A DNA stretch of 64,000 nucleotides from Escherichia phage vB_EcoP-101114BS3 (MZ234015.1), one strand, 5' to 3'. Numbered from the stretch's first letter, positions 8,249-51,416 are shown. The notes: generated by a model not told the origin, from the letters alone. Made by a program: numbers and translations.

Positions 8249-8292
8249 AACTCCTTAATATATCAGTGTACACTAAGGAGTATACATTATGT

Positions 8293-10005: not shown

Positions 10006-10200
10006 TTAGATAACCTTGTGCTTATAGATGTTAGGGTTGTAGTAATGCAACCAGTTTATGTATTGTTTCTGTTCAAGGTAGTGTCTGCAATCATGACAAA
10101 AAGCATGACCCAAACCTGTTTCCTCGTTCAGCTTGAAGTTGATAAGAAGCTTCTGCTTTTGACAGAAGCTACATGCTTTAGTGGGCTTCACGTAATGCAT
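10006..10200 (-). CDS. small Cys-rich (zinc-ribbon-like) protein
   Basis: CSFC...CHDC motifs; start uncertain because the long ORF overlaps thyX. Confidence 0.35.
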   Translation of the reverse strand: MHYVKPTKACSFCQKQKLLINFKLNEETGLGHAFCHDCRHYLEQKQYINWLHYYNPNIYKHKVI

Positions 10201-10828
10201 CCCATGAGATTGGGAAAAGTTTACGAAGCTCTTCATCAACAGTTGATGCGAACACTCGTACTTCATACTGAGCATGGTCGGACAGTCGCTGACGACATAA
10301 CTCTGACCAGCCATATAAAGAACCTGTCCACACCCACTCAGTGATCATACCTTGAGGTAGAACGAATCGGGCTTGCTCTGGAGCAATAAACTTAATCAAC
10401 TCATCATATGACTCAAGAGCTGTTTCATATGCCCGATTAATCAGAACTAGTGCAGAGTTTTGCGCTCCCGTGGTGAGGAGATTCCCCGCACCTGCATGGA
10501 GGTCCGAAGGTCTTTCAAAAATCTCTTTAGGGATGAAGAGTTCAACTGCTCCATCTTTATACCGCCGGGACATTTCGTTCCACGAGAATCCAACTTGATG
10601 CTTGCCCAGCTGTCTCGCAATTGCGATTGGCGCTTTGCATCGGAAGCTAATTGTCGGATGGCGGAATGGTGTGACATGCTTTTCTCTGGCAAGGAACTTG
10701 ATAAGGCGTTCATCTCGTTCATTTAACTCTCCTTCACGAGTAACCCCAAAGGAAACTCGAGCTGCATTAACAACAGATTTATCAGAACCCATTGCTTCAA
10801 TTAGTGTTGCTTGTAATTGTTCGTTCAT
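10178..10828 (-). CDS. thyX: flavin-dependent thymidylate synthase ThyX-like
   Basis: ThyX-like APIAIARQ...H..GFSWNEMSRRY; canonical RHR is KHQ here. Confidence 0.8.
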   Translation of the reverse strand: MNEQLQATLIEAMGSDKSVVNAARVSFGVTREGELNERDERLIKFLAREKHVTPFRHPTISFRCKAPIAIARQLGKHQVGFSWNEMSRRYKDGAVELFIPKEIFERPSDLHAGAGNLLTTGAQNSALVLINRAYETALESYDELIKFIAPEQARFVLPQGMITEWVWTGSLYGWSELCRQRLSDHAQYEVRVFASTVDEELRKLFPISWDALREAH

Positions 10829-13350: not shown

Positions 13351-13541
13351 TATCTGTCAACCGATTTAGGGACAAACTGCATTACACAGACCTGACTACG
13401 AGGGAGATTTATTTCACAAGCGGCTCTTCTCGTCTCAATCTTAACGCTAGAATCTGGACCAACGTTAGATATAAATACTCCCATAGCAAATGCCCCAACT
13501 ACAAAACCTATAGCTAAGTAAGTAGCTTTTTCTTCTTTCAT
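13350..13541 (-). CDS. small membrane protein
   Basis: 63 aa with hydrophobic helix. Confidence 0.4.
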   Translation of the reverse strand: MKEEKATYLAIGFVVGAFAMGVFISNVGPDSSVKIETRRAACEINLPRSQVCVMQFVPKSVDR

Positions 13542-13546
13542 CTTGG

Positions 13547-14080
13547 TTATACACCCTTAGATGCAACTACACCATTACTGCCGTTGTATCGACCCTTCAC
13601 TGCATAAGAGTCATCACCAGCGTGAGAGTGTTCGAACATAACCATTTGACCAACACGCATCCCAGCACGAACTCGTAAGCTATGATTATGGGTAACGTTA
13701 TGAAATTCAAAGGTTAGTTTACTGCTGTTAAACCCTGCATCAGCCCAACCAGCATGGAGGTGGTTTAAACCACAACGAGCCATTGAGGAGCGAAGTACAA
13801 ACAGGCTTGAGATGTTATCTGGAAGGTTAAACTCTTCCATTGAGTGCGCTAAGAAGAATTGCCCCGGAGTGATAACAATACCATCTTCAGGGATTTTTAC
13901 TTCTTTCCACTTGAGGTTTTCTTTAGCATCAATGTCAACAATTCCGTCAGCCTGTTCTTCAACAAGGATAGTATCACCAATACGGATATCCACGCTAGCA
14001 GCGTTAACATATTTATGCTCCGCATCTAAAAAGCCATTATCAATAACGCTGTGTAATTCTTGAGAACCTAAAAGACTCAT
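13547..14080 (-). CDS. dcd: dCTP deaminase (dUTPase superfamily)
   Basis: Dcd-like LRSSMARCGL and C-terminal pattern, 177 aa. Confidence 0.8.
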   Translation of the reverse strand: MSLLGSQELHSVIDNGFLDAEHKYVNAASVDIRIGDTILVEEQADGIVDIDAKENLKWKEVKIPEDGIVITPGQFFLAHSMEEFNLPDNISSLFVLRSSMARCGLNHLHAGWADAGFNSSKLTFEFHNVTHNHSLRVRAGMRVGQMVMFEHSHAGDDSYAVKGRYNGSNGVVASKGV

Positions 14081-15540
14081 GAGTTTCTGTTTCCTTGTAC
14101 AGATGATGCCAAATTATTAATCATGTTACGAGCTGTTTCACGAGATAGTGTAACACCTGCTAAGTTGTTATGAAGCTCACCAGATAGCTCACGAGCAGCA
14201 GCTCGAAGTTCTGTACCAAGTGTAGTATCGGAGTGAGCCAAACCATTACGACGACTATAAGGTCGAGGAGCTTCGTTAGCGTCATTAGCCAATGATGCAA
14301 AACCAATATGAGCAGCTTCACGAGACGCTATAGTTGACACTCGATCTTCCGTAGGGGTTGGCAAATCACCAACTTCTACACGTTCTATATCACCAGCACG
14401 TAGACCCTGAACGACTGAGCTTACTGTTTCCCATGAACGACGAGAACGCTGTAAATCACCCATTGACGGAGAAGAAGCAGGTCGAACAGTTACTCCACCT
14501 GTATCATGAGTGACATGCCATGTACGAGTATCCATTCCAGAAGAGCGTGCACTACCAAAACTGCCAGTGAAAGTGTCACGAGGTGCCATTGTAGGAGGAA
14601 CTGCGAATCTTTCCTGTTGCCAAGAATCGCGTCTGTTAGTTCCCGGAGTCCAAGGCTGCGTGATTGCTTCAGCACCTATAGTGGTTAATCCGCTAGACCA
14701 TTCTGTCTGTAGGTTAACTTCCTCGTCCAGATAACTACGACCCCTTTCCTGAGGAATGTTTAATATAGTTTCCATCATCTTCAGGGTATAATGACGACGC
14801 TGATTCTGATATAAATTTACACCAGCCATAGGTCCAACTAAATCACTAATCAGGTGAACTTCTGGCTCACCGAAAGCTCCCATTGCAAGGTGCATATATT
14901 CGGTAGAACTGCTATAAACTGCAACAGTTGCTTCAGGCCACTTCTTGTGAACATACTTCATTTCACGACCAGATACCACAGGAATGTCACGAGTGTATGA
15001 CATTGCAAACAAACCTTCGTTTGACACATACATGTCATCAAGAGACATGAACCCCTGACAGATCATAGGAAAGCGACGGCTTAAAGTATCCATATCCAAA
15101 GGTAGATTAATCATCATCTGGATTTTAACTTGATCAATCTCAATTTCCAGAATCTCTTGGAAAGTGAAAAGTGCTTCAGCGTAAGTTGTCCCACTAACAG
15201 GCTGAACTAGGCGAGATGTAGTTTGAAGCCCTTTACTCTCTGTCCAAGACAAGAAGTTGTCAAGGAACAGTGCAGCATTCATCACGTTAGCAGGGTTGTT
15301 TTCCTGACGGGTGTTCCAACGAAACCCTCCTTGGACTAGGAAGATATCCACATCATTCGGAGTTCGGTTCTGGAAGAACGTATCACGGATAGCACCACCT
15401 GCAATAACAGGGTAGATACCATCAGGAACTACGTTGTCTCTGATCAGATTGCGAATCAGATCAAGCCCTACGCTGAGGGCTTCTCCTTCTTGAAGGTTTA
15501 ATTCAGACAATGGAATCTTAATCATTTCTACATTTTCCAA
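14077..15540 (-). CDS. Pol-beta-superfamily nucleotidyltransferase (CCA-adding-enzyme-like head) with long low-complexity C-terminal region
   Basis: VIAGGAIRD...DVDIF motif; C-terminal ~180 aa Ser/Arg/Thr-rich. Confidence 0.55.
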
Positions 15541-16076
15541 TTTAGAGATGGGGGATTCTTATAATCAAATCCAGCCATTTGGCAAAGACACATGTAAACC
15601 TTAACTGTCAAGTTAACGTCTTGCTCACAATACGTGAACATGTCTTCAGTGAATGCATCCCATGCTTCTTCCTGTTCACCATAATCACCCTTCAGCTCTC
15701 CCAGAAATTCGCCCCATTGCTTGAGGCCATGACCGCGAGGGCCATGTCTAGGGTCGCCTTTGGGGTATTCTGGACTATCACCAATACGGTCAGGCTTGAG
15801 ATATCTACTCAGGCACAAAGTATCGAAGACGTTAAAGCGAAAAGGTATCACATGAGAATAAAACTTAAACAAAGCAGGAAGGTCAAAATCAATAATATTG
15901 TGACCTATTACTACATCAGCTTCTTTCAGTTTGTGTAGTGCTTCTTCAATTTGGTGAGGGCGATACCCCCACCGCTCTCCAGATAATACATCAAATATCC
16001 AGATACACCAGACATTCTGAATACCATCATAGAGATTATCACCCTCGATATCAAACGCATACAGTTTCTTTACCAC
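15528..16076 (-). CDS. 3'-5' exonuclease (DnaQ-like), stand-alone
   Basis: Exo I FDIEGD, Exo [10 protein letters not shown], Exo III YCEQD. Confidence 0.8.
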
Positions 16077-17860
16077 GGACGTGCCTCCCCTTCCTGTGCA
16101 AGTAAGGAAGCTGCATCCTCTCCATTGGTAACGGTAAAAGGATGCTCTTCATCAACTTCATGATCTTCTCGTTCTACAAGACGACCTGTTTCGTTAATGT
16201 ATTTGGTATAGCAAACCCCTGTCTGTCCATAGTTACGCTCTTTGAGCAGTCGTATGATTGACAAGTTTTTACCTAACCCATCCGCTTGTTTGTTACGTTC
16301 AAAACCAATAATACACTGACACCAGCGCATCAATGAACGTGAACCAGTAAACTGTACTTCTTTAACCTGACCACCTTCTTCGTGAGGTGCACCACCTGCC
16401 GGAGCGTTCAAGTGAGATAATACAAAAGCAGTGAAGTCTAATTCCTTACACATACCAGCAAGCTCTGAAGCAATCTTGCTGATTTCTGTGTTTACCTCAG
16501 ATGGGGTTAAGTGAGATACCAATGCAGTGATGTTATCAAGAATGATAAATTTACACTGATTCTCAACTACCCAAAAGCGAATACACTGCTTAATGTCTTC
16601 CCACTCGTTCTGCCCAAAGTTGTCATACAAGAAAAACTTATCAGCGTATCGAAGTGCTTCATCTCGTAGCTGGCTTTCTTCGTACTCAACATCTGGTCGG
16701 TGGAATGGAATAGATGCAGATTTACCTGCAATGTTCTTAACAGACATGCCTACCTTCTCTTCCAAGAAGAAGCCACCACCATTAAAACCATGCTCAAGGC
16801 AAAGCCATGCTACTAGTTCGTGTGCGATTAAGGTTTTACCTGAACCAACACCACCGCCGATTGCAACCATCTCTCCCCAACGAATACCAAAGGTCATGTC
16901 GTTAAGAGTTTTCCACGGATAAGGAATACCCCATTCCGCTTTCTTCAGAGCATCTTCGAGGCAATCAAAAACTGTAACAGCTCCAGCAGGAGATTCCCGC
17001 TTAGCTGAATATTTCAGATTGTTGAAAAGCTCTTGACCTCTCCCTGCAAGTAACATGTCGTTTGCATCTTTGATTTCCTTTTCTTGTCCGTTATAAGTGA
17101 ACGTACCTTTTGGAATCCTTGCAAACTTAACATGCGGGTACAGAGAACGACCCTTAGTTAAAGCAATCTCACCTGCATCATCATTGTCCATGCAGAGTAC
17201 AATCTCCTCGAAACCATTAATAAAATCACGGTTTCTTGATAATACAGAAGAGATTGAACCTGCACCGAACGGAAGAGAGACGCAAGCAGGTTTGATGTTA
17301 GTTGCGTTTGTAAACGCGGTAAGTACGTGGAACCCAGACATACAAGAGAGAGGATCTTCAAAGATGAAGAGTTTCTTGTTGTATACGTCACCACGTTGTG
17401 CTTGAGCCATACCAAACAAGTCGGCTTCTTTCACATTACCTACATAATAGAACTTCTTGCTGTCTAGAAGTTTTACTTCATATCCAACAATGTTCCCATC
17501 ACGTTCACGAGGGAAGAAGTAGCTGTCAGGAGTTTGACCATCTGTTTGGCTTAAACCGATACGGCATCCATAACGTTCAGATACAGCTTTAGGAATTAAG
17601 CGACGAGTCAACTCTCCCTGAGGAAGCTCTAAGCAATCGTCTAAGACTTCTCGGAGTTCTTCAGGGGACAGCTCTTTCTTTTCATTAGGAGTGGGCGTCG
17701 TTCCTTTCTCGAAGATTTCATACGCACCACATCTGTTACATGAACCCCACTCCTCACCGGACTCTTCATTTCGGAAGAGAATCATGTGATTGCGGGTCTT
17801 ATCACGACCATGAGAGATACACTCTTTACAGCCTGTGTCTCCCAAAATGATCTTTGACAT
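16070..17860 (-). CDS. primase-helicase (T7 gp4-like)
   Basis: N-terminal Cys4 zinc finger, TOPRIM-like region, Walker [10 protein letters not shown]. Confidence 0.85.
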
Positions 17861-17895: not shown

Positions 17896-18102
17896 TTAGT
17901 AAAACGATCGTATTTCTTCCCACACATCATCTTGCAAGTTTCTAAAACCCTGCAAGGTTTGCTTTGTTCTGTGAATAAATTCTTCAGAGTGCTTATCAGG
18001 TGTGAGCATACTGACAAACTTTTCATAGCGATTAATCTTCCACCGCATCTTCAAGTAGTCAGATTCCAGCTTTCTTAACTTCTGCCTGTCAGTTACTGTC
18101 AT
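17896..18102 (-). CDS. hypothetical protein
   Basis: Start moved to MTVTD to limit overlap with upstream gene. Confidence 0.35.
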   Translation of the reverse strand: MTVTDRQKLRKLESDYLKMRWKINRYEKFVSMLTPDKHSEEFIHRTKQTLQGFRNLQDDVWEEIRSFY

Positions 18103-18520
18103 CCTTCTCACCTGCCAGATATGCTGTCCAGTCACCAGATTCAACCAGAACATCTTGTTCTTCGTCGATGTGATAAATCCACGCTTCCACAGTTTCACCG
18201 CTGTCCAATAATACTGGAATCAGTGTACGCTTGTAAAAGGTGTATGGGTTATCATTACCACGATGACCTTCCAGACCGTCATACGGACCTTCCAGACCAG
18301 CTTGGGTTGTTTCAAAGACTTCTACACGAACAGGCTTACCATTGCTGTCATGCTCCAAAGATACACTTGGGAAGTATGCTGTGCAATACTGATACAGGTT
18401 ACAGTTGTTTACTGTCCACCCTTCACCAATAGACACACCACCTGCACGAGCATTGATAGCGTGGTTGTGTTGACCTTTACGAAGAGAACCATACGTTGCA
18501 ACTAATACTTTATCAGACAT
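18089..18520 (-). CDS. gamma-glutamyl cyclotransferase-like (AIG2/GGCT fold) protein
   Basis: N-terminal VATYGSLRKGQ motif typical of GGCT/AIG2-like proteins. Confidence 0.6.
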   Translation of the reverse strand: MSDKVLVATYGSLRKGQHNHAINARAGGVSIGEGWTVNNCNLYQYCTAYFPSVSLEHDSNGKPVRVEVFETTQAGLEGPYDGLEGHRGNDNPYTFYKRTLIPVLLDSGETVEAWIYHIDEEQDVLVESGDWTAYLAGEKDDSN

Positions 18521-18524
18521 TACA

Positions 18525-18722
18525 TTACCTTTTGTTTAAAATTTCTTTTGTACAAGAAGTCCCGTTACACACGAGAACTGTTTGAGTTATAGAATCGACA
18601 ACTGTTACATGGCTGCCGCATTGAGTTATGATTTGACCTCTCCCTGAATCTTTAGAGATGCATTCATCAGCGGCGATCGCTGACACACTGAATAAGGAGA
18701 GGAAAAATAGAATCTTTTTCAT
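18525..18722 (-). CDS. small secreted Cys-rich protein
   Basis: Signal peptide MKKILFFLSLFSVSAIAA; 4 Cys in ~45-aa mature part. Confidence 0.5.
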   Translation of the reverse strand: MKKILFFLSLFSVSAIAADECISKDSGRGQIITQCGSHVTVVDSITQTVLVCNGTSCTKEILNKR

Positions 18723-18728
18723 GGCTGC

Positions 18729-19145
18729 TTACCAATCATGTTGGAAACCAGAATATCCAGAGAAGATGATTGATCGGATTGGCTTTTCAGGGAATCCTTC
18801 AAAACATCCCTTAATGGCTTTCTTGGTTTCATCAGAAATTGACTCTTTTTCACCAAACCAATATTCTTCAAAAATATCAGAGAAGATATAAGTTCGGTAT
18901 CTTTCCAAGTCATAAAAACCTTCCACTGCACTTGTAACAGCTCTACTAATTACACTTGAAGCTACAGGAAATAAGTCACCGTGTTCCAGAAACAAGCACC
19001 AACGATCAAAGAGAGGAATCTCTTCATCTTTCAGAAGACTTTCTAACTCTTCCTTTGCCTCTTTCTTGTGCTTCTCAAAGAGGTTTTTGGAATACTCTAC
19101 ATCTAAGATACGACTTTTAAACATATCCAGTTTATTATTAACCAT
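18729..19145 (-). CDS. hypothetical protein
   Basis: 138-aa ORF. Confidence 0.5.
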   Translation of the reverse strand: MVNNKLDMFKSRILDVEYSKNLFEKHKKEAKEELESLLKDEEIPLFDRWCLFLEHGDLFPVASSVISRAVTSAVEGFYDLERYRTYIFSDIFEEYWFGEKESISDETKKAIKGCFEGFPEKPIRSIIFSGYSGFQHDW

Positions 19146-19202
19146 TTTACAACCTCTAGTTAAATTCGAACTAGCCTCCTCTTTCGAAGAGGCTAAAGCA
19201 AA

Positions 19203-19388
19203 TTATTCTACTTCGAAGTGTTTGATCACACCAGTCAGTACATCAGATTGGAATGTACCCACTAGCTCTGTACCTCGGAAAAAGTTAACACTTGTTCCAA
19301 GTGATTCAAAGCGATCTGCTTGAATGTCCAGAGATTGAATATTTCCTTCTGCTGACATTGTACGAAACATGATTGTGTATTTATTCAC
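19203..19388 (-). CDS. hypothetical protein
   Basis: 61-aa ORF. Confidence 0.35.
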   Translation of the reverse strand: MNKYTIMFRTMSAEGNIQSLDIQADRFESLGTSVNFFRGTELVGTFQSDVLTGVIKHFEVE

Positions 19389-19627
19389 AGACTCGTTACT
19401 CCCTTATCTGCTTGTGCAATTGCGATGATACGCTCAGCACATTCCATTGAATACTTATCACCTCGTTTGAGGAAGGTGATGATTGCAGAGAACTGATTAC
19501 CAATCATTCTCTTATTTGTGATACCAAACTCTTCACAGAGTTGGTTGATAGCTTTACGAGAGCCTACAATCAGAGGCTCTTTTTCTTCGGTCATTCCACG
19601 GCTGATCAAATCTTCGATAGACAACAT
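19385..19627 (-). CDS. hypothetical protein
   Basis: 80-aa ORF. Confidence 0.45.
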   Translation of the reverse strand: MLSIEDLISRGMTEEKEPLIVGSRKAINQLCEEFGITNKRMIGNQFSAIITFLKRGDKYSMECAERIIAIAQADKGVTSL

Positions 19628-19653
19628 TACAAATTCCTTTTTGTTTAATTTAA

Positions 19654-20889
19654 TTACAGAGTTACTGCTACTTCGCTACCTTCAACATTGACAGACTCTA
19701 ACTTGCGAGGGTTATGAATCTGGACTGGATTGACCGGAACGTTCCAACCACTGCGGTAGAAGTTACGACCATCACAGAACAAAATGACATTGGCAGACAT
19801 TGCATTCGGTTGAAGGTTGTTGTGGACGTGACGGATATCTGCAATCCAGTAACCACGAGACAAAGTGTAACCAGTAGGTGCATTACGAATAGTTTGAGTA
19901 TTCATCTGACCTTCTAGCTGCATTTCTTCAGGAACTACATCTACCGAATCAACCGGCTGTGCTACTTGTCCTTCCAGTGCAAAGTTTTCATCATCAGCAC
20001 TTTCAATATCATCCACTAACTCACCGTCTCCATCTTCAATCGGAGTCTGGTAAACCACTTTATACTGAGGAGTATAGAGAGGGTTCTGAGCTTTAACAAA
20101 CTCAAGAATGTTATGACGGTAGGTATCCAGAGTTGTACCAGTCAGGCCCGGTGCTGTATTAACTTCCAGTACCCACGCTTCTTGACCTTTGGTGATAATA
20201 TCAACTGCACCGAAATCCAGACCCATTGATTCAACAGCTTTCACTGCATTGATCAGAGAGGCGTCATTCGGAGCATCTGTGAAGGAGCTTGAGTAAACCC
20301 AGCCAGTGTGGTGATTACGAATATCTTCACGATAGTTAGGGTCTTCGCGATAACCATTGCGACGAATCTTCTTCTGAACATAGGTGATTACACCTTTGAA
20401 CACATGGACACGCCACTCACGACGTGGGCCTTGAATGCCTTTAGTGTACAGTTCAGCTCGACCAAGACCATCACCCGGTTCTACAACAACAATGCCCGAA
20501 CCAGAGTGACCAGTCAGCTCATGGCGCTCATACACAATATTACCAGTGTTTGACCACTCTTGAGCAGTCTCTTGAACATCTGTGTATTCCACAGTTTTAA
20601 CACCTGCTTGGTCCATCACGCTGAAAGCACGACGTTTGTTCGCTGCCATATGTAAGGCTGCGGTACGGTTAAGGACGGTTGCAGAACCAAAGAATGATTC
20701 AGGATAGCGACGGTTCCCGTAGTTAACAACCACATCACCTTCACGAGAACGCCAGCGGCTATTCTCTGAAAGAAGACCCATCACGTTAGCATTGATGCGT
20801 TCATCACGGATAGTATCACTGATAGCAGATACTAGAGCGTTAACAGAATCAGACGGGCCATACGGAAGAACACGGATACGAGTAGTCAT
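19654..20889 (-). CDS. ATP-grasp family ligase
   Basis: ATP-grasp C-terminal signature WVLEVNTAPGL; 411 aa. Confidence 0.7.
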   Translation of the reverse strand: MTTRIRVLPYGPSDSVNALVSAISDTIRDERINANVMGLLSENSRWRSREGDVVVNYGNRRYPESFFGSATVLNRTAALHMAANKRRAFSVMDQAGVKTVEYTDVQETAQEWSNTGNIVYERHELTGHSGSGIVVVEPGDGLGRAELYTKGIQGPRREWRVHVFKGVITYVQKKIRRNGYREDPNYREDIRNHHTGWVYSSSFTDAPNDASLINAVKAVESMGLDFGAVDIITKGQEAWVLEVNTAPGLTGTTLDTYRHNILEFVKAQNPLYTPQYKVVYQTPIEDGDGELVDDIESADDENFALEGQVAQPVDSVDVVPEEMQLEGQMNTQTIRNAPTGYTLSRGYWIADIRHVHNNLQPNAMSANVILFCDGRNFYRSGWNVPVNPVQIHNPRKLESVNVEGSEVAVTL

Positions 20890-20891
20890 TT

Positions 20892-21122
20892 TTAGATACC
20901 TTTTAGTTTAAGAATTTCGTTACGACAGGATTGAATTTTAGCTTCGATTGCCCAATACTCAGCGAACATTTCGTCTTCTTGGGCATCGCTTGGAGAGTCG
21001 ATTAAGTTAAAAGCAAACGGATACAGCTTTCGCTGCTCCGTTACCAGTTGTTGAAGTCGGAGTTGTTGATACTCCAGCATTGTCAGGTGAGGCTTAGCTC
21101 CCTTGCTTGACATGAGGCTCAA
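20892..21122 (-). CDS. hypothetical protein
   Basis: 76-aa ORF between ATP-grasp and GATase genes. Confidence 0.4.
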   Translation of the reverse strand: MSLMSSKGAKPHLTMLEYQQLRLQQLVTEQRKLYPFAFNLIDSPSDAQEDEMFAEYWAIEAKIQSCRNEILKLKGI

Positions 21123-21327
21123 CTTTAATCCCCTTCATTTTAACATAGTCAGCCAACACGTTATTGATAACGGTTGGAAAAGGGATTTCTACTGGAGAGT
21201 CAACCAGCTTCCCAATACCTTCTTGCATCCACTTCTGGATTGCTCGGAGGTTATCACATCCTGTGCTTGTCATCGGAATACGGCGGGTAGTTACCACGTT
21301 ATCCAACATCAGTTTACGAACTTCCAT
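21094..21327 (-). CDS. hypothetical protein
   Basis: 77-aa ORF. Confidence 0.4.
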   Translation of the reverse strand: MEVRKLMLDNVVTTRRIPMTSTGCDNLRAIQKWMQEGIGKLVDSPVEIPFPTVINNVLADYVKMKGIKVEPHVKQGS

Positions 21328-21338
21328 AACTATACCTC

Positions 21339-23372
21339 TTAGTGTTTACCTTTACAGTAATCTGAATTACAGATCACCCTGTTTTCTTTGTTCAGTGAGC
21401 AAGTTTCTGCATCACGCCACGGAATTTGTTTATAACAGACTGCACAAAACCCAATTGAAGTCCAGAGGGCTTTTGTAAACTCAGCTGTTCGTTGTCCATC
21501 GTAACTGACAACTGTTTTTCGGAGAGAGGTTGACTTTTCTGGAAATGTCTCCGCTTTCTCAGCGGGTACCTCCTTTGGGGCATTCTTTGGACCATAAACA
21601 GAGATGGCATAAGTATCACCACCACGTTTTTCCAAATACGAATTAGGAACATCTGCAAGTGTGATGTCCCCTGAACGTTTTGCTGAGCTGACCATTACAA
21701 TCATACGGCTAAGCATACGTTCATCAACACGAACAGCTACTTCAGGACGACGTGGGTTGGTTGTGTCTACTGCTTTAGTCCAAATATAACCTTCAGATAG
21801 AGTAACATTCTTTACTTTATCTTTGATTTCTTTGGAGCAGATATAACAAACGTCTTCACCACGAAGTTTACTCATTTCGTTGTCAAACTCGAAATCAGTC
21901 TTGACTTCACCACAGATAGCACATACACCCAAAGGCACATCTTCTTCCTCTTCAGAGGTTTTAGATAACGCTTCGAAGCATTCTGGATGCCAGTATGCCT
22001 GATAAGCAAACACAGCCTTACGAGCATCTTTCCAGTCAATGTGCTTATCACAACCACCACAGTCACCATGAGAGTGAGATTCCCAGAACTTACGAGTGAC
22101 TTCTACACCATTCTTAGTGATGAAGGAGTCCTCTGCATCAAAAGGGATATCATCATCAAAATCAGCAGTAGTGCTTTGAGGCTCCTTATCTGTAGCATCA
22201 ACAAACAGCCCTGAAGTTAGTACGAGGCGAATCATACTGTCCACTTCGGAGATACAAGCAATCGTCCCGCGATATACTACCTTTGGGTTTTCAAGAGCCT
22301 TAAGATATTCATCTTTGGCTACGTTGTGAACATCCCCTTCGACATACTCTTGAGCTTTATCATCGTAGATGTAACCAACCATCTTACCACGATCTGTGTT
22401 GTTATAAGCATGGAACTCGTGAGGAATAATATCCACACGACCATCACGACGATAAGGAAGACCGCGATCGGCAGCCAGTTTGTTCTGGTCTTCAATCGCT
22501 TTACGACGACGAATGTCTCCGCTTGTCACGCCGGGCTTGTCGTCTTTGTTTCCGTAAATGTCGCTTGTGCTGCTGCTTGATTTGTTTGTCTGTTGGTTCT
22601 GATAAAGAGAGGAGTTCGAGTAATAGCCGCCCCAGCGACTCGTTACCGTAAAAACCGGAAGCGTGTGCTCCACCTCTTGAACCAGAGTCATACGACTGTT
22701 AGACACATCAAAGATATACTCAGTTCCCACTTTACATTCGAAGTGGTCATTGATATGGTTCTTATGGGACTTAGAACGCTCTAAAATCCACATAAGCATA
22801 GCTTCTTCAGAAGCTCCAAACCAATCCAAACCACAGCGGGCTAGGTGGAAAGGACGCTCATCATTACGGATAATGTGAAGTGTGTTGTCTTTAGCATCAT
22901 GCCAAATCAAAGTGAATGCACCATCCAGTTTTTGGATAGTCTCTGCTGCTCCAATGGTGTTAATTGAGTGGCAGATGTTTTCACTATCAACTTCGAAACG
23001 CTTACTGTCAGGAAGGAGATCTTGATCTAACAGGGTTCCATTATGAACCAGAGTAATATCCCCGTGAGTAAATGGGTGAGCATTTCGAGCATTGACAGCC
23101 CCACGAGTGGCATGTCGGCTGTGACCAACAATCCACGAAGGAGGAACTACGTAGTTCGTAAGCCCTTTGGTAATATTTGTATATTCTGTCTGGAGCATAA
23201 AAGCATAAGAAGGAAGAGCTTCTTTATAAGAGAAGACTTGCTTTTCACCTTTACGCTGACCAAACACACCAGTTGAGTGCTGTCCACGGAAAACACCAGC
23301 ATACAGAAGTTGGTTGAAAATGTCCAAATCTGCTGAGGTCATGTTGCCGCCAGCTAATACGATACCACAAAT
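21339..23372 (-). CDS. class II (Ntn) glutamine amidotransferase domain fused to Cys-rich zinc-ribbon region; predicted AUU start
   Basis: In-frame CGIVLAGGN...RGQHSTGV...LVHNGTL upstream of first ATG matches MCGIV...RGQD..G of class II GATases; only non-stop codon before Cys is ATT at 23370..23372; AGGTGG 8 nt upstream; C-terminal CxxC pairs. Confidence 0.65.
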   Translation of the reverse strand: MCGIVLAGGNMTSADLDIFNQLLYAGVFRGQHSTGVFGQRKGEKQVFSYKEALPSYAFMLQTEYTNITKGLTNYVVPPSWIVGHSRHATRGAVNARNAHPFTHGDITLVHNGTLLDQDLLPDSKRFEVDSENICHSINTIGAAETIQKLDGAFTLIWHDAKDNTLHIIRNDERPFHLARCGLDWFGASEEAMLMWILERSKSHKNHINDHFECKVGTEYIFDVSNSRMTLVQEVEHTLPVFTVTSRWGGYYSNSSLYQNQQTNKSSSSTSDIYGNKDDKPGVTSGDIRRRKAIEDQNKLAADRGLPYRRDGRVDIIPHEFHAYNNTDRGKMVGYIYDDKAQEYVEGDVHNVAKDEYLKALENPKVVYRGTIACISEVDSMIRLVLTSGLFVDATDKEPQSTTADFDDDIPFDAEDSFITKNGVEVTRKFWESHSHGDCGGCDKHIDWKDARKAVFAYQAYWHPECFEALSKTSEEEEDVPLGVCAICGEVKTDFEFDNEMSKLRGEDVCYICSKEIKDKVKNVTLSEGYIWTKAVDTTNPRRPEVAVRVDERMLSRMIVMVSSAKRSGDITLADVPNSYLEKRGGDTYAISVYGPKNAPKEVPAEKAETFPEKSTSLRKTVVSYDGQRTAEFTKALWTSIGFCAVCYKQIPWRDAETCSLNKENRVICNSDYCKGKH

Positions 23373-23449
23373 TTTCTAATCCACCTGAAGGGTAAACCCT
23401 TTCATCTAATTAACCTTTAAATGCGCCCTGTATAAGAGCGCCCGTTGTG

Positions 23450-24550
23450 TTACAGCAGTCGTTCTAATTGCATTTCCAGATGGTCTGGAATATAACCAGT
23501 GACGTTATCATCACTGCTACCTGATTCACGCATCAATGCAAACATGTGACGAATTTCACGAACCGTTGCGATTCGAGTGCTTTCAATCTGAGGGGTGTAG
23601 TAGGTCATGATCTCTTCGTAGACACTGTTGGCATTACCGCGCACATATCCCAAGAAACCATAGAAGTCATTCATATCACGTAAGTTGATAAGGACTTCAC
23701 CATCAGGGCCAGTCTGTTGCACACGAACACGACCAACCAAAGTTACAGATTGCTCACGACAGAAGAGAATATCACGAGCAAGACGATACCCTTCAGTGAG
23801 ATCACTGTCTCTTGGAGTATAGTCTAGGGGTAGATGTTGAATCATAGGAGCGAAGCGCAGCTCATTCAACTTCTCAACATAAGCTTCATTGTCTAAATCT
23901 GCATATTCAACAGCCAGTTTCTTGAGAACCAAGAAGCGGTTGACCAGATTCAGAAGTTGGCTCTTTTTCCACTTCGGCTCTGAGATACGGAACTCAACAG
24001 AACCAAATTGAGATAGAGGCAAAAGATTAAGGGAGGTGTATTTATCCCAGCTATTAACAAGAGAGTGGAAGAAAGCTTCCCCGTCTCGGTTGAACGCTGA
24101 CGAAGCATTCATAACTTGTGCTTGAACGACAGCAAAAGCTGGACAGAAGTTGCTACGATAGCGATGGTATCCAGAACATTTGAACATCATCTTTTCATAG
24201 AACGTCCATCCAAGAATAACTTTCTTAAGGATATTACTATCAGCGTCACGCATATCCATATGAACGTGAGTGGAGCAGCGCCAAGTTCCCTCGGCTCCAG
24301 AATCCTGTACTGCTTCACTCAGATTGTTAATAGCACGAAGTAATTCTTCACCGTTGTAAGGTCGTGCACATACTAATTCACAACCATCACGAAGAGAGCC
24401 ATCTTCAGTACAAACCCACATATCAGCGTCAATGTCAGTTGTACCTTCGACTTCTAACTCAATACCAACACCACACTGAAAAGCAATACTTGGATGCGGT
24501 TCAGATAAGCGAGGGTTACGGTATCCAAAAACTTGTGCTACGGTTGTCAT
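23450..24550 (-). CDS. amidoligase-like enzyme (carboxylate-amine ligase, glutamine-synthetase-like fold)
   Basis: GVGIELEVEG and STHVHMD motifs as recalled for Amidoligase_2-type enzymes. Confidence 0.6.
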   Translation of the reverse strand: MTTVAQVFGYRNPRLSEPHPSIAFQCGVGIELEVEGTTDIDADMWVCTEDGSLRDGCELVCARPYNGEELLRAINNLSEAVQDSGAEGTWRCSTHVHMDMRDADSNILKKVILGWTFYEKMMFKCSGYHRYRSNFCPAFAVVQAQVMNASSAFNRDGEAFFHSLVNSWDKYTSLNLLPLSQFGSVEFRISEPKWKKSQLLNLVNRFLVLKKLAVEYADLDNEAYVEKLNELRFAPMIQHLPLDYTPRDSDLTEGYRLARDILFCREQSVTLVGRVRVQQTGPDGEVLINLRDMNDFYGFLGYVRGNANSVYEEIMTYYTPQIESTRIATVREIRHMFALMRESGSSDDNVTGYIPDHLEMQLERLL

Positions 24551-25173
24551 AATGATTCCACCAACTCTACATTATATGATGACAGGTCTGAAGAAATATG
24601 CTTGAACTTCTCCAGAAGGTTTAAAGATTGACGACCATTGTCGCCATAACCAGCTTCAAGAAGCACGTTTCCAACGTAAGCCCCTTTGTAATAAACTTTT
24701 CCATCGACAGGATTGATATAGATGAAACGAGTAACCAACCCTTCAAACTCTGGATTAAACAGGTTATACACCAAATCACCCGGAATCGAACGTCCGAGAG
24801 AAGGTGGAGTACCACGAAGTTTATTCCCCATCAAGCCTTTAGCTCGCTGACGAACAGGGTTGATATGGGTCCAGCTCACCACGTTATTACCATGCTGAAG
24901 GTATCCTACATCTGGAGACTCCAGAATGAGGCTGTGATCAAACACTGGGATATTACTAACAATCTGACGTTCAAACTGACCTTCGGAGTTTTTAGTCCAG
25001 CGTTCCGCCTCAAACACTAAAGACATTTCAGCGTCGTGTGAGTAGTCGTCGATATCAAAGTTACCTTGCTGACGAACATCAAGCACATATAGAGGGAGGT
25101 TTTTACCATCAGGTGATCGCTGAGCAATCCATGTTCCACAATAATAGTGTTGAAAATCTCTTAACAAGCTCAC
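24547..25173 (-). CDS. hypothetical protein in ligase cassette
   Basis: 208-aa ORF, 4-nt overlap with amidoligase gene. Confidence 0.5.
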   Translation of the reverse strand: MSLLRDFQHYYCGTWIAQRSPDGKNLPLYVLDVRQQGNFDIDDYSHDAEMSLVFEAERWTKNSEGQFERQIVSNIPVFDHSLILESPDVGYLQHGNNVVSWTHINPVRQRAKGLMGNKLRGTPPSLGRSIPGDLVYNLFNPEFEGLVTRFIYINPVDGKVYYKGAYVGNVLLEAGYGDNGRQSLNLLEKFKHISSDLSSYNVELVESL

Positions 25174-25182
25174 AATATCACC

Positions 25183-25989
25183 TTATACAATCTGGAGTTT
25201 AGAGGAGAATTTATCTGCTTCTTTAACATCGTTACTGTTGATGATGTTGTGAAGCTTTTCAATTGGAAGGCGAGAGTGAAGTGACATCAATACTTCCATA
25301 TCACAGCCTTGAACAACCTTATCAACTTGCTCATAAACAAACTTGCGGGTTGACTTCTCGCCAATCCAGAAGTTAGAAAGAGAACGATATTCAATACCGT
25401 AATCCTTGTAACGAATGGCAGAAGCCTTTCCGTATAACTCTTTACGACGAGTGTCTTTATCCATGATTACAGCTGGCAAGGACAGGAAATAATCACACAA
25501 CACACCCAACATCATTTGAGTTTGTCGAGTAATCTCTAAAGTCCCGGAGACACCAAGGTGCACATGACCCCCAGCAGTACGCAAACCCTTATTAGTTGCG
25601 ACCGGTGAAGGGTTCTTTTGTCCAGTGAAGGCATTGAAATCAGGAGTACAACCAAATACAAAGGCTGACGGATGGAAAGATTCAAGCTCTTCTGAAGTGA
25701 ACACATGAGAGCTAATCCCAAGTGCTGCCTCCATGCCACGTTCATTGAGAACTTTGTTAGTCAGATCAATACCACGCTGAATGTTATCATCAAACGCTTC
25801 AAACCCTTCCTGTGGGTTAATATCAAACTCGGCCAGAACGTTGTCTTCTTGAAGACGAACATCAGGAGCCAGATCAATTTTATTGTCTTTAGAACAGCCC
25901 AGCTTACCAGCCACAGAGGTGATAATACCGGAAGCAGTACGAACAAACATTTCAGGGTCAGAGCCAATAAGGAAAGCGCGCTTAGTCAT
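25183..25989 (-). CDS. second amidoligase-like (COOH-NH2 ligase-like) protein
   Basis: GSDPEMF and GGHVHLG motifs parallel those in 23450..24550; start moved to MTKRAF. Confidence 0.45.
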   Translation of the reverse strand: MTKRAFLIGSDPEMFVRTASGIITSVAGKLGCSKDNKIDLAPDVRLQEDNVLAEFDINPQEGFEAFDDNIQRGIDLTNKVLNERGMEAALGISSHVFTSEELESFHPSAFVFGCTPDFNAFTGQKNPSPVATNKGLRTAGGHVHLGVSGTLEITRQTQMMLGVLCDYFLSLPAVIMDKDTRRKELYGKASAIRYKDYGIEYRSLSNFWIGEKSTRKFVYEQVDKVVQGCDMEVLMSLHSRLPIEKLHNIINSNDVKEADKFSSKLQIV

Positions 25990-26932
25990 TGTAATACTCC
26001 ACGAGTTCATCAAAAAGGGAAACAACACGAGCACCAGCTTCTTCTGGTGTCATTGAGGAAGGTACTGCTTGCATCAGACGTTCGATAAAACTTTGAACAG
26101 TAATTCTGTCCATACGCTGATCTAATACTTCTCGCTTGTGACCTGCACAAGTTGACCAGAGACGTAACCACTCACTCATACTCTCATAATGGTCAGGGTC
26201 TTGGTCACGACGACGTGCCATACGACGGAGAACTCCATCATTATGGTTTCGTACATAACCATCTCGGTTGTCATCAACACCGAATACATTCTGAACCCAT
26301 ACGTTTTCAGAAAATTCATCAGTGGTGCAAATTAATGGCAGAAATGCAATTGCACTCATGTCGCCATCAAAATAAGTCGCTGCTGACTCATCGGTTGAGT
26401 CTACGTCATTACTATAACACCAGCGACCAAAGAAGTTACGACTTAAACCAGCTAAGCGTAGAGCTAAACCGATTCGTTGTCGCTTAAGCAACTCTTCCTT
26501 GTCTTGTACGCCTTCCTGAAGGAACTCCATTCCATTAAAATCACCATCCAAATAGCTACGGATGGTCATTAGTCCAGTAAACACCTTGTCTGCTGGATGG
26601 TTTCGAAGGTTCACGGCAATAGAGTTCACCGAAGTGACAGAGAACATATCTTTATAGCAAGACATTGAGTTAAAAATGTCTGTTGCTTCAACTAAAGCTC
26701 TTTCGATATCTTTAGCTGGTACGCCATAAAAATTGTGAGGCCAGAAGTTAATAACTTCAATTTCTGAAGTTCTGTCACGAAGGCTTGTTCGGTTACGACT
26801 TTCACCGTTAATGTCTGTAACAGAATACATGTGCATACAGTTAAAAGTACCAAAGCAAGCTCTTCCTTTGAACACTGACTCACCGAAATCCTCTGCCGGT
26901 GTTACCGGAGCAATCGATGCGGAGATTGACAT
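25982..26932 (-). CDS. hypothetical protein in ligase cassette
   Basis: 316-aa ORF, no motif recognised. Confidence 0.55.
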   Translation of the reverse strand: MSISASIAPVTPAEDFGESVFKGRACFGTFNCMHMYSVTDINGESRNRTSLRDRTSEIEVINFWPHNFYGVPAKDIERALVEATDIFNSMSCYKDMFSVTSVNSIAVNLRNHPADKVFTGLMTIRSYLDGDFNGMEFLQEGVQDKEELLKRQRIGLALRLAGLSRNFFGRWCYSNDVDSTDESAATYFDGDMSAIAFLPLICTTDEFSENVWVQNVFGVDDNRDGYVRNHNDGVLRRMARRRDQDPDHYESMSEWLRLWSTCAGHKREVLDQRMDRITVQSFIERLMQAVPSSMTPEEAGARVVSLFDELVEYYND

Positions 26933-26940
26933 ATTCGCCT

Positions 26941-28158
26941 CTATTTATTAAAGAATAATTTTTCCATAATGGTTTCCCACTCTTCTGAGGGGAGGGTTGA
27001 GAACCCGTTTCCGTGAAGCCTGTTTGTCATGCAACTAATAATATTGTACATGTTGTAGCTTCGGGTGGATTCTGTTCCATTGTTCCAGTTATAACCGAAA
27101 ACAATTTTATCGAAGGAGGTTTTATCCGTAGTTACTTCTCGGATGAACTCAACCAAGAGCGATTTCTCTGTGATGACCGCACGTTCACCATCTGGCAGAT
27201 TACAATACTGAGGAAGAAGAATTGGTAAGAACATCGAATTGTTCACTCGACAATCACGAACATCTTCACTGCGATAGATTAGGCTTGAGAAGTCTTCATC
27301 ACGCAGGTGTCCTTCACCTTCAGTGTATTCACACTGTCGCCATTTGGTCTGACGAGGTTCAATCATTGTACTACCAACGCCTACTGTATACAGAGACGCT
27401 TGGAAGATACACGAGTCGTAATCATTCCCTGTTAAAGCAACTTGCTCATTGCCGAACACATCCACTGAAGAGTTAATCAGTCGGCTGAATGCAAGAGAGG
27501 CTAGTGGAGACCAACCTTTCTTATACATCTTGTTCAGCATTTCATACACAGCAGATTTTTCATCATCTGTATAGAATGTACGATTCAGCATCAGATAGAA
27601 CAGAGCGCGATCAGCAGGACAACCATCAGTACAAACACCCATGAATCCTACTTCATGCCATACCAGACATGAGTCAGAATCTTTATCCATGAATGCTTCA
27701 AAGGCTTCCATTACAGCCCTGTCAGTAACATCAGGACGGTTGTTTTCTTCTGCCCATGTTTCTACATGAGAAGGAGGACGAGGGTCTCCATTCTCCACCC
27801 CTTCGCGGAAATATTGAGTGGTAATAGGCTTTTTATCACCATAACGTTTTACACCATAAGCGGGAAGGTGTGTACCAGAGTTCCAGATGTACTTAATTTC
27901 GGACATAGGCATCATGTTTTCGAGAACGTTCTCTTCAGCAGTGCCTTGACGAACCATCATATTTTCACTCCACACCTTAATGCGGATATTCCAGCCGTAG
28001 TTGCTGTCATACGTGTTATAATAATCAGGATCACCATCTTCATCTTCATCATAATCACCACCCTGATAGTAACCTGCTTTCAGGAAACCATAACAAGGAG
28101 GCCAGACGGTTACAACATCATCTGATTCTTTCCAGCTTTGAAGTGTTACAGGGAACAT
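26941..28158 (-). CDS. hypothetical protein in ligase cassette
   Basis: 405-aa ORF, acidic N-terminal region, no motif recognised. Confidence 0.55.
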   Translation of the reverse strand: MFPVTLQSWKESDDVVTVWPPCYGFLKAGYYQGGDYDEDEDGDPDYYNTYDSNYGWNIRIKVWSENMMVRQGTAEENVLENMMPMSEIKYIWNSGTHLPAYGVKRYGDKKPITTQYFREGVENGDPRPPSHVETWAEENNRPDVTDRAVMEAFEAFMDKDSDSCLVWHEVGFMGVCTDGCPADRALFYLMLNRTFYTDDEKSAVYEMLNKMYKKGWSPLASLAFSRLINSSVDVFGNEQVALTGNDYDSCIFQASLYTVGVGSTMIEPRQTKWRQCEYTEGEGHLRDEDFSSLIYRSEDVRDCRVNNSMFLPILLPQYCNLPDGERAVITEKSLLVEFIREVTTDKTSFDKIVFGYNWNNGTESTRSYNMYNIISCMTNRLHGNGFSTLPSEEWETIMEKLFFNK

Positions 28159-28169
28159 CTTTTACCTCT

Positions 28170-28532
28170 TTACTCTGCTACCAAAAGGCTCAGAGATTTG
28201 CGAATGTAGTCAATACTACGGAAGTTTCGATAGTTCTCTTGGAAGCGCATTTTTTCAAACTCTGCTTCCTGAAGCTCTACCTCTGCTGCTTTATATCCTG
28301 ATAAAGCTAAACTTACCACATCCTGAGGTAAGGTATTACGACGGCGAATAAGATATTTATTCGCTTTTAGTTTACCTTGTGCACGAGCCATTTTGGCCTT
28401 TGCCGCCTTGATACCATGAGAAATCCAAAGCAGTTGCTGTTTCAGATCTTCCTCATCCATACCACCTAAATCATTTGCTACTTTATGCAGCGTAGACAGG
28501 TTCACATGGCCTTTAATGGGGCGTAGGTTCAT
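28170..28532 (-). CDS. hypothetical protein
   Basis: 120-aa ORF. Confidence 0.5.
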   Translation of the reverse strand: MNLRPIKGHVNLSTLHKVANDLGGMDEEDLKQQLLWISHGIKAAKAKMARAQGKLKANKYLIRRRNTLPQDVVSLALSGYKAAEVELQEAEFEKMRFQENYRNFRSIDYIRKSLSLLVAE

Positions 28533-28696
28533 AACTTCTCCTGTTTGTCACATTGATTGGTTAGCCAGTTGTAAGACCCACTGTTGTTCTTGCTTAACTC
28601 GCAAGATGCAAAAGAGTACATCCTGACAAACCCCACAGTGGCTAAGCAAATAAAGATTGCTGCCAATAAGAATTTAGCTTTCAACTTATTATCCAT
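28529..28696 (-). CDS. small membrane/secreted protein (55 aa)
   Basis: Below ORF-track cutoff; hydrophobic KFLLAAIFICLATVGF; stop overlaps next ATG. Confidence 0.3.
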   Translation of the reverse strand: MDNKLKAKFLLAAIFICLATVGFVRMYSFASCELSKNNSGSYNWLTNQCDKQEKL

Positions 28697-28898
28697 ACAA
28701 CCTCTTCTTTGAGCTTAAAAAAGGACTCTCCTAAGAGAGCCAAGCTTTAAGGCCAATTAAATAGATATCACCCAATATCTGTGGATAACCTGCTCTTAAA
28801 ATATTCTATCCGACGGATGTTCGAGGATTATTCCTCTCCCTAGCATCGGCCCCATACGGGAAAGATTAAATTAAGTTTAGGTTAGTTGAGCCAGAATA

Positions 28899-51347: not shown

Positions 51348-51416
51348 GTTTTAAGACCTATACAAGCCAGTGTGTAATGTATATTCTTTGTCTACATACA
51401 ACTAGGAGGACAATCT

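Follow-up and report, generated by a model that had tools for sequence, protein, structure and literature searches.

Composition of the cassette and earlier descriptions

The stretch of DNA under study (the window; 64,000 nucleotides of Escherichia phage vB_EcoP-101114BS3, MZ234015.1) derives from a phiEco32-like prolate podophage, which RefSeq classifies within the genus Suseptimavirus of the Gordonclarkvirinae. It carries a cassette of genes for amide-bond-forming ligases and associated enzymes, on which an original prediction had been made from the nucleotide sequence alone. Calling of open reading frames (ORFs) recovered every ORF that had been predicted between 18089 and 28158, at the coordinates given and all on the minus strand. 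In the direction of transcription, these encode a conserved phage-only protein of 405 amino acids (aa; unk405 or 'X', 26941-28158), a second such protein of 316 aa (unk316 or 'Y', 25982-26932), a COOH-NH2 ligase of type 2 (L1, 25183-25989), a 208-aa protein with SH3/Tudor-like beta-barrels (unk208, 24547-25173), an Amidoligase_2 protein (L2, 23450-24550), a class II or N-terminal nucleophile (Ntn) glutamine amidotransferase (GATase, 21339-23372), a small conserved protein (s77, 21094-21327), an ATP-grasp ligase (19654-20889) and a GGACT/AIG2-like gamma-glutamyl(amine) cyclotransferase (GGACT, 18089-18520). The ORFs are tightly packed and overlap at 24547-24550, 25982-25989 and 21094-21122. None of the enzymes has a visible signal peptide. 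The region from 18000 to 28200 is identical (100%) to that of Escherichia phage vB_EcoP-101114UKE3, shows 95-99% identity to that of a group of related coliphages including IME267, 4E8, Bas86/87, SU7 and EK010, and 89% to that of ECBP2.

The profile searches agreed with the enzymology that had been read from the sequence, i.e. three ATP-dependent carboxylate-amine ligases, an Ntn GATase and an AIG2/GGACT protein, and this enzyme set supports the idea put forward with it, of a pathway that synthesises or attaches an amino acid, a peptide or a gamma-glutamyl group. The cassette had also been presented as an undescribed system, which it is not. PFAM family PF14395 is named after phiEco32, the same gene set has been described in papers on LUZ24-like, RIO-1-like and OM43 phages, and the cassette is thus already known as the computationally defined 'amidoligase' or 'peptidoglycan modification' cassette of phiEco32, LUZ24 and RIO-1. 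The families and their order are the same in those phages and nothing essential differs; compared to the phiEco32-type cassette the present phage adds some lineage-specific fillers (a DUF7020 protein and small ORFs) and lacks the HNH endonuclease found in Bas86, SU7 and EK010. As far as the accessible text of the citing papers goes, the in silico description is credited to Iyer et al. 2009 and Hardies et al. 2013, and the hypothesis attributed to these two, a modification of peptidoglycan directed against superinfection, is repeated in PMC5498523, PMC11945000 and PMC10580990. Duhaime et al. 2017 described a cassette of seven genes and listed phiEco32, 7-11, PA11, tf, LUZ24, PaP3 and CW02 as carriers. 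In the literature that we could search, neither a substrate or product established by experiment nor a solved structure assigning a product was found; the statement in the original prediction that none had been assigned thus agrees with that literature, which offers an in silico hypothesis only.

The feature is of interest as a biochemical problem and not as a discovery. The cassette occurs in hundreds of isolated phages, and its in silico description dates back 17 years. It includes two enzyme families (PF12224-type and PF14395-type) without a solved relative and two or three partners without a recognisable fold. Identification of the product would assign a function to several protein families together, and could explain a conserved step in the takeover of the host by podophages. 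What is new here are the comparative points that make the problem more directly testable: the 208-aa protein as a universal partner, the fixed order of L1, the 208-aa protein and L2, the families of the 405-aa and 316-aa proteins, to which no solved structure corresponds, the displacement of GGACT by a Peptidase_C26 hydrolase, the ATT start codon of the GATase and the avoidance of restriction sites by the genome. Together these sharpen the prediction to an obligatory gamma-glutamyl-amine intermediate that would be cut by GGACT or C26, and make DNA hypermodification less likely.

The three ligases

The two amidoligases belong to the superfamily formed by glutamine synthetase (GS) and gamma-glutamylcysteine synthetase (GCS). 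L1 matched PF14395 ('Phage phiEco32-like COOH.NH2 ligase-type 2') with an E-value of 2e-8 and 34.2 bits (cut-off 25) and phrog_3815 with 3e-112, and its alignment across seven phage lineages contains 23 invariant columns, including H142, H144, E200 and R202. L2 matched PF12224 (3e-8, 34.2 bits, cut-off 22) and phrog_7469 (4e-142), and is 70% identical to the protein of phiEco32, which identifies the two cassettes as orthologous. The motifs that are invariant in L2 read GxExExE, SLR, HxH and GSxEFR, the ExR being part of this constellation. Neither sequence nor profile searches returned a relative of L1 or L2 in the PDB. From the conservation of these putative catalytic residues we read both proteins as probably active ligases.

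The ATP-grasp enzyme is more remote from described families. It matched phrog_2599 strongly (9e-170), yet scored below the thresholds of every family that would lend it a specificity: 19.6 bits for the RimK family of PFAM (cut-off 21), 36.6 bits for MptN of NCBIfam (2.5e-9, cut-off 350) and 27.8 bits for TIGR00768 (cut-off 143), so that the thresholds for a RimK-family alpha-L-glutamate ligase were not reached. RimK was also the best match in the PDB (2e-3). Its nearest named relatives are the alpha-L-glutamate ligases MptN, RimK and CofF, against which it scored higher than against Ddl. It differs from these by an additional C-terminal domain (residues 336-402), which matches the stand-alone family phrog_20552. 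Five residues are invariant in seven phages (G130, G132, D230, E242 and N244), and we read these as the likely glycine-rich loop and the acidic and asparagine residues that would bind Mg-ATP. Considering its relatives, glutamate is the candidate substrate of the enzyme, which we take as a lead and not as a finding.

The glutamine amidotransferase and its ATT start codon

The GATase matched PF13522 (GATase_6; 2.6e-14), and the start originally proposed for its gene, at 23372, proved right. The gene begins with a rare ATT codon (23370-23372, minus strand) that is preceded by AGGTGG and followed by codons for Cys-Gly-Ile-Val; the ATT start thereby supplies the N-terminal cysteine nucleophile (Cys1) that defines the class II amidotransferases. 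In both the automatic ORF call and the RefSeq annotation (NC_070982) an ATG at 23342 is used, with the result that the catalytic Cys1 is lost. In 89 homologous genes that were compared, the cysteine was preceded by ATG in 74 cases, by ATT in 12 and by TTG in one, and all 12 copies with ATT belong to phiEco32-like phages. Invariant in seven lineages are C1, G2, R28, H83, R85, H109-N110-G111 and D128-S129. By analogy with GlmS, we take the Asn-Gly pair to form the oxyanion hole, and R85 and D128 presumably bind the free alpha-carboxylate and the alpha-amine of glutamine or of another compound with a gamma-glutamyl group.

Beyond residue ~215 the protein is poorly conserved except for a CxxC zinc ribbon. 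The zinc ribbons mentioned in the original prediction are visible as CxxC pairs in the C-terminal part, and one such pair (C483/C486) is invariant across seven phages. PFAM and NCBIfam searches matched the N-terminal ~215 aa only, and a synthase (acceptor) domain such as that fused to the GATase in GlmS, PurF, AsnB and GltB was not recognised. Lacking such a domain, the GATase must, to judge from its sequence, either deliver its ammonia to another protein or itself hydrolyse gamma-glutamyl amides. A connection with the amidoligase comes from directed evolution of a Bruynoghevirus, in which missense changes arose in the amidoligase as well as the GATase in each of two evolved lines (PMC11450229). 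The pairing of these changes in both lines suggests that the two proteins work together and affect the performance of the phage on its host.

Distribution and gene order

A tblastn search with the Amidoligase_2 protein returned 293 phage records, which included the LUZ24-like and phiEco32-like groups and marine Zobellviridae, and whose hosts comprised, among others, Escherichia, Pseudomonas, Aeromonas, Vibrio, Proteus, Salmonella, Cronobacter and Pseudoalteromonas. With the COOH-NH2 ligase as a profile, 460 relatives were found in IMG/VR, and the stretches around 80 of these were examined. The recurrence of one gene set in one order throughout these records and stretches exceeds what chance would give. 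To compare gene contents, iterative hidden Markov models (HMMs) were made per family and mapped on 86 loci. Using the letters b for the 208-aa protein, N for the GATase, s for the ~77-aa protein, A for the ATP-grasp ligase, G for GGACT and H for Peptidase_C26, nearly all 86 loci followed one of two arrangements: L1-b-L2-N-(s)-A-G, frequently with the primase/helicase gene next in line, or (G or H)-N-L1-b-L2-A. The order here (L1-b-L2-N-A-G) is identical to that in LUZ24, 7-11, Vp_R1 and the IMG/VR loci L010-L016, and in the cultured lineages examined the primase/helicase gene comes after the cassette. The two amidoligases, the GATase and the ATP-grasp ligase were all present in 56 of the 56 loci with adequate flanks, and the order L1-b-L2 was fixed across about 85 loci. 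A Rosetta-stone search for domain fusions between the cassette families revealed none.

The three large proteins and s77

The 208-, 316- and 405-aa proteins had been set apart as unrecognisable, and indeed none of them gave a sequence match in PFAM, NCBIfam or the PDB. The profile of unk208 matched the ORF directly upstream of the Amidoligase_2 gene in each of the seven reference loci. Of the 25 loci in which the iterated HMM did not detect it, 24 have an ORF of at least 110 aa in the same slot; an alignment of 17 such slot ORFs was homologous to unk208 (hhalign probability 97%, E 1e-10). On the basis of these profiles, the 208-aa protein is a universal core member of the cassette, always located between L1 and L2.

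For unk405, 40 homologs were found, in which C22-Y23-G24-F25, W92-N93, D158, D183-R184, R193, R226, D248, H284 and R286 are invariant. Its structure was predicted with very high confidence (pLDDT 91, pTM 0.91), and within BFVD the model matched solely uncharacterised proteins of phage groups that carry the cassette, with two such proteins per genome in GAP52 and LAh_8. It has the look of an enzyme whose fold is not recognised. Close homologs of unk316 (17 homologs in total) are confined to phiEco32-like phages. In other lineages, 29 ORFs situated within 3.5 kb of the cassette form a cluster that was homologous to unk316 (hhalign 95%, E 3.5e-8); the members listed, those of 7-11 and its relatives, stop immediately upstream of L1. 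This cluster also matched unk405, though weakly (56%, E 1e-4), and the 405-aa family includes a 303-aa protein of 7-11 (91%, E 9e-7). A direct profile-profile comparison of unk316 and unk405 was not significant, but the two share the colinear motifs C[YF]G, PAD[RK]..LM..R and W.Q..G.G[HY].R[DN]. Because of these motifs and the bridging cluster we take it as a lead that the two proteins are probably distant paralogs.

The small protein after the GATase, s77, had phmmer matches in 7-11 (9e-14) and Vp_R1 (9e-13), and its family comprises 26 ORFs, including those of LUZ24-type phages. A role as a carrier like Pup or LysW was considered and dropped, because such carriers end in Glu or Gln, whereas the last residues of the small conserved ORFs in this phage are KQGS and LKGI, and those of the 7-11 homolog KGIKV.

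Two exchangeable enzymes predicted to cleave gamma-glutamyl-amines

The GGACT protein matched PF06094 with 9e-16 and 59 bits (cut-off 22.8). Its YG[ST]L motif (Y10, G11, L13) and the glutamate of an LEG motif (L83-E84) are invariant, and we take these to be the YGSL motif and the catalytic glutamate of the family. In TC6 and Pecta a GGACT gene is lacking and a Peptidase_C26 (class I GATase-like) hydrolase is encoded directly upstream of the GATase instead (PF07722; 1e-16 in TC6 and 2e-20 in Pecta), at the place occupied by GGACT in the related phage RIO-1. The similarity of these hydrolases to PuuD is weak (E 3.5e-4 to 7e-4) and far under the cut-off. Across the 56 well-covered loci, 29 carry GGACT only, 19 C26 only, four both and four neither; those with neither are 7-11-like, and in 7-11 itself a GGACT gene lies ~11 kb downstream. 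The negative association between the two is pronounced, with an odds ratio of 0.03 and a p-value of 1.5e-7 in a statistic that ignores kinship.

GGACT converts a gamma-glutamyl-amine into 5-oxoproline and the free amine, and C26 enzymes of the PuuD type hydrolyse a gamma-glutamyl-amine to glutamate and the amine. The substrates of the two overlap only in the gamma-glutamyl-amines, i.e. gamma-Glu-NH-R with a free glutamyl alpha-amine. Nearly every cassette thus carries an enzyme able to split gamma-Glu-NH-R, either a GGACT or a PuuD-like Peptidase_C26. Considering that C26 replaces GGACT and that their substrates overlap in this way, the pattern indicates that the cleavage of a gamma-glutamyl-amine is the step that the pathway requires and conserves.

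A proposed pathway

Based on the above, we propose that the cassette encodes a cytoplasmic pathway that builds up, stepwise, an amide or peptide conjugate with glutamate on a small acceptor with the help of a transient gamma-glutamyl handle, a proposal that we consider about evenly balanced between right and wrong. The set of domains, the conserved putative catalytic residues, the cohesion and order of the genes and the displacement of GGACT by C26 are shown, whereas the steps that follow are inferred. Given its position among the replication genes the cassette is probably expressed before or during replication. Each of the ligases would activate a carboxylate as an acyl-phosphate and join it to an amine, so that successive amide bonds are formed, and at least one of these steps would add or use L-glutamate. 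The amidotransferase would either deliver ammonia to one of the ligases, by which a carboxylate is turned into a carboxamide, or hydrolyse a gamma-glutamyl amide in the manner of EgtC. A gamma-glutamylated amine in which the alpha-amino group of the glutamate is free would be an obligatory intermediate, to be deprotected by GGACT in the last step. The 208-aa barrel protein could act as a partner of L1 and L2 or as a substrate holder, and the 316- and 405-aa proteins may be lineage-specific, unrecognised enzymes or scaffolds.

Gamma-glutamyl handles are known from PuuA/PuuD, PauA/PauD, BtrJ/BtrG and EgtA/EgtC, and each of these pairs resembles a part of the cassette. In the Puu and Pau pathways a GS-fold ligase makes the gamma-glutamyl-amine and a C26 enzyme removes the glutamyl group; likewise a C26 enzyme is found in the GGACT slot of many cassettes. 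The phage cassette differs from these pathways by two extra ligases and an Ntn GATase, the present phage has GGACT instead of C26, and the oxidoreductases for the oxidase and dehydrogenase steps of Puu and Pau were not found in any cassette with PFAM. In butirosin synthesis the ATP-grasp enzyme BtrJ installs a gamma-glutamyl protecting group, which after transfer is removed as 5-oxoproline by BtrG, a protein of AIG2/GGCT fold. Compared by description only, the cassette departs from this scheme in that PFAM and phrog searches found no acyl carrier protein, decarboxylase or acyltransferase. In ergothioneine synthesis the GCS-type ligase EgtA is combined with the class II GATase EgtC, which acts as a gamma-glutamyl amidohydrolase. 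The cassette similarly pairs a GCS-fold ligase with an Ntn GATase that lacks a synthase domain; however, the EgtC model matched the phage GATase with an E-value of only 6e-3, weaker than the N-terminal domains of GlmS, PurF and AsnB, and homologs of EgtB, EgtD and EgtE are absent. Since the other defining components are absent in each case, the cassette is not a member of the Puu/Pau, butirosin or ergothioneine systems.

Several points weigh against the proposed pathway. The specificity for glutamate is an extrapolation, considering that the ATP-grasp and C26 proteins score far under the cut-offs of the respective families. The complementarity of GGACT and C26 takes no account of phylogeny, and four loci hold both enzymes. 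GGACT could also be a salvage enzyme or be unrelated to the pathway, and two or three of the conserved proteins with an unknown fold may perform key chemistry, in which case the scheme is incomplete. Finally, relatives of the phage resist many restriction-modification systems (PMC11990801), and a small-molecule product gives no account of this.

Alternative acceptors and targets

A specific version of the proposed pathway is the modification of cytoplasmic peptidoglycan precursors (UDP-MurNAc-peptide) by the three ligases and the amidotransferase, through addition to or amidation of a free carboxylate or of the amine of meso-diaminopimelate (mDAP), which would alter the wall either against superinfection or in preparation for lysis. 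This is a possibility that we hold tentatively and at less than even chance; at the same level, the peptidoglycan stem peptide is the single most plausible acceptor. It is the standing hypothesis in the literature, and the stem peptide has the attraction of being the same across the Gram-negative hosts of the phages with the cassette. There are also precedents: cell wall precursors are substrates of two ATP-grasp enzymes, Ddl and Aslfm (a D-aspartate ligase), mDAP is amidated by LtsA and AsnB1, both class II GATases, and gamma-Glu-epsilon-Lys, the classic substrate of GGACT, resembles a gamma-glutamyl group on the amine of mDAP. Nevertheless, the idea is wholly in silico and PFAM revealed no Mur-ligase, UDP-binding or lipid II-related domain in the cassette ORFs. 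Moreover, the scores of the ATP-grasp enzyme favour the alpha-L-glutamate ligases over Ddl, and the native stem peptide does not present a gamma-glutamyl group with a free alpha-amine on which GGACT or C26 could act. A report on genes of Poseidoniales viruses was not used as an argument against peptidoglycan, as the host is only predicted and a muramidase-type lysin is found beside predicted holins in the viruses of that paper.

The metabolism of polyamines or other small amines offers a second explanation, in which putrescine- or spermidine-like amines would be gamma-glutamylated and reprocessed in a phage version of Puu/Pau, by which the phage would control the polyamine pools of the infected cell. 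The many cassettes that hold both GS-fold ligases and a PuuD-like C26 hydrolase are in line with this, as is the activity of GGACT on gamma-glutamylamines and the apparent location of GGACT and C26, like that of the whole cassette, in the cytoplasm. The absence of the oxidase and dehydrogenase steps of Puu, the very weak matches with PuuD, and the fact that three ligases and a GATase exceed the needs of such a pathway make this explanation unlikely.

Modification of a host or phage protein with glutamate or a short peptide, by RimK-like tailing or as a pupylation-like tag that is matured or recycled by the GATase and GGACT, appears more doubtful still. The best PDB match of the ATP-grasp enzyme is RimK, PafA and Dop of the pupylation system share the GS/GCS fold of L1 and L2, and Tudor/SH3-like barrels as in the 208-aa protein are of a type that often binds peptides; the amidoligase families are reportedly framed as peptide taggers by Iyer et al. 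Against this stand the lack of a small Pup- or LysW-like protein (the 77-aa protein ends in neither Glu nor Gln), the lack of a candidate target encoded nearby, and the free glutamate alpha-amine needed by GGACT and C26, which suits small gamma-glutamyl-amines better than protein tags. Just as doubtful is a bolder scenario, in which the cassette enzymes, the 405/316-aa pair and the 208-aa protein would install a new covalent modification, for instance an amide derived from glutamate, placed on DNA, on a nucleotide or on a macromolecule of the host. This modification could underlie the broad restriction resistance of the Gordonclarkvirinae, and the 405- and 316-aa proteins would then constitute a new family of macromolecule-acting enzymes.

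The original prediction had also listed a DNA base among the possible targets, beside a protein, a nucleotide and a small metabolite. Of this list the DNA base was weakened by our analysis. In its favour one may cite the genes that adjoin the cassette (primase/helicase, a polymerase exonuclease subunit, a nucleotidyltransferase and dCTP deaminase), the zinc ribbons of the GATase and the barrel domains, which could bind nucleic acid, and the co-occurrence of amidoligase and amidotransferase PFAM matches with thymidine-hypermodification genes in viral contigs (PMC8989533). The genome, however, strongly avoids restriction sites. Palindromic hexamers occur at an observed/expected ratio of 0.76, against 1.00 for other hexamers (Mann-Whitney p 6e-14); CTGCAG, GAGCTC, CCATGG, GCATGC, GTCGAC and CCCGGG have zero copies where 4-14 of each were expected; CCWGG was found once instead of ~76 times and GATC 131 instead of 297 times. 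Such a pattern is to be expected if type II enzymes can attack the DNA, and not if the genome carries a blanket modification. Sites for EcoRV, EcoRI and EcoKI remain (31, 7 and 6, respectively), so that site loss does not account for the reported resistance to restriction-modification systems. PFAM matches to a hydroxymethylase, 5-HMUDK, aGPT-Pplase, kinase, glycosylase or transferase were not obtained for the ten largest ORFs between 18089 and 28532, and the RefSeq annotation, over 42 kb, shows in this respect only ThyX and a dCTP deaminase. In addition, modified DNA is not reported for the LUZ24-like and RIO-1-like carriers of the cassette in the literature found. Considering these data, hypermodification of DNA or nucleotides with an amino-acid or amide moiety, whether attached directly or via an installed handle and serving as protection from restriction, is very unlikely.

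The ThyX that the phage encodes is an ordinary one (10178-10828, minus strand), and together with dCTP deaminase (13547-14080, minus strand) it makes it probable that the phage produces ordinary dTMP, which does not favour the suggestion of a genome with dU for T. Between the genes for dCTP deaminase and the polymerase exonuclease subunit lies that of a 487-aa 'nucleotidyltransferase' (14077-15540, minus strand), a protein with a GGAIRD motif and a long C-terminal half of low complexity, for which NCBIfam gave no match. The motif resembles that of CCA-adding enzymes and poly(A) polymerases. The authors of the BASEL collection have speculated that this protein is linked to DNA modification.

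Boundaries, filler genes and intervening elements

The cassette is part of a longer leftward block. A terminator-like hairpin followed by a T-run (GGCTCTCTTAGGAGAGTC then CTTTTTT; 28724-28741, minus strand), a consensus match only, may form the upstream boundary of this block; a terminator is annotated at the equivalent place in phage 4E8. From there down to the primase/helicase gene (16070-17860, minus strand), the first replication gene downstream and outside the cassette proper, only closely packed minus-strand genes are found. The block opens with two small ORFs (28170-28696, minus strand) of 55 aa (28529-28696) and 120 aa (28170-28532), which are both in the RefSeq annotation and are known solely from phiEco32-like phages. 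The 120-aa ORF matches phrog_11370 (8e-60), and among the first seven comparison loci (L001-L007) phmmer gave a match in Bas86 alone. Sigma-70-like promoter matches were no commoner than in shuffled sequence. A scan for TAATGTATA, which we take to be the late-promoter element of phiEco32, gave a total at chance level when matches with one mismatch were included, and none beside the cassette; the four exact copies are at 1724-1732, 1795-1803, 8281-8289 and 51375-51383.

Within the cassette, a 76-aa ORF (20892-21122, minus strand) between s77 and the ATP-grasp gene returned no homolog outside the phiEco32-like phages. The interval between the ATP-grasp and GGACT genes (18525-19627, minus strand) is filled in a variable way, here by ORFs of 80 and 61 aa, a DUF7020 protein (18729-19145; PF22885, 1.4e-19) and a 65-aa Cys-rich ORF (18525-18722), of which Bas86 lacks the latter two. 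The 65-aa ORF lies between the GGACT and DUF7020 genes, and combines a signal-peptide-like N-terminus (MKKILFFLSLFSVSAIA) with five cysteines; we consider it a possible small secreted protein of the moron type.

The COOH-NH2 ligase gene is uninterrupted in this phage. In Bas86, SU7, EK010 and others, an HNH homing endonuclease is located at its 5' end. That of Bas86 (13374-13844 in locus L001) is at a place equivalent to around 25989 in the window, and the ligase of Bas86 is annotated as a two-piece join. In UFV-P2 an HNH gene is found between the amidoligase and the GATase.

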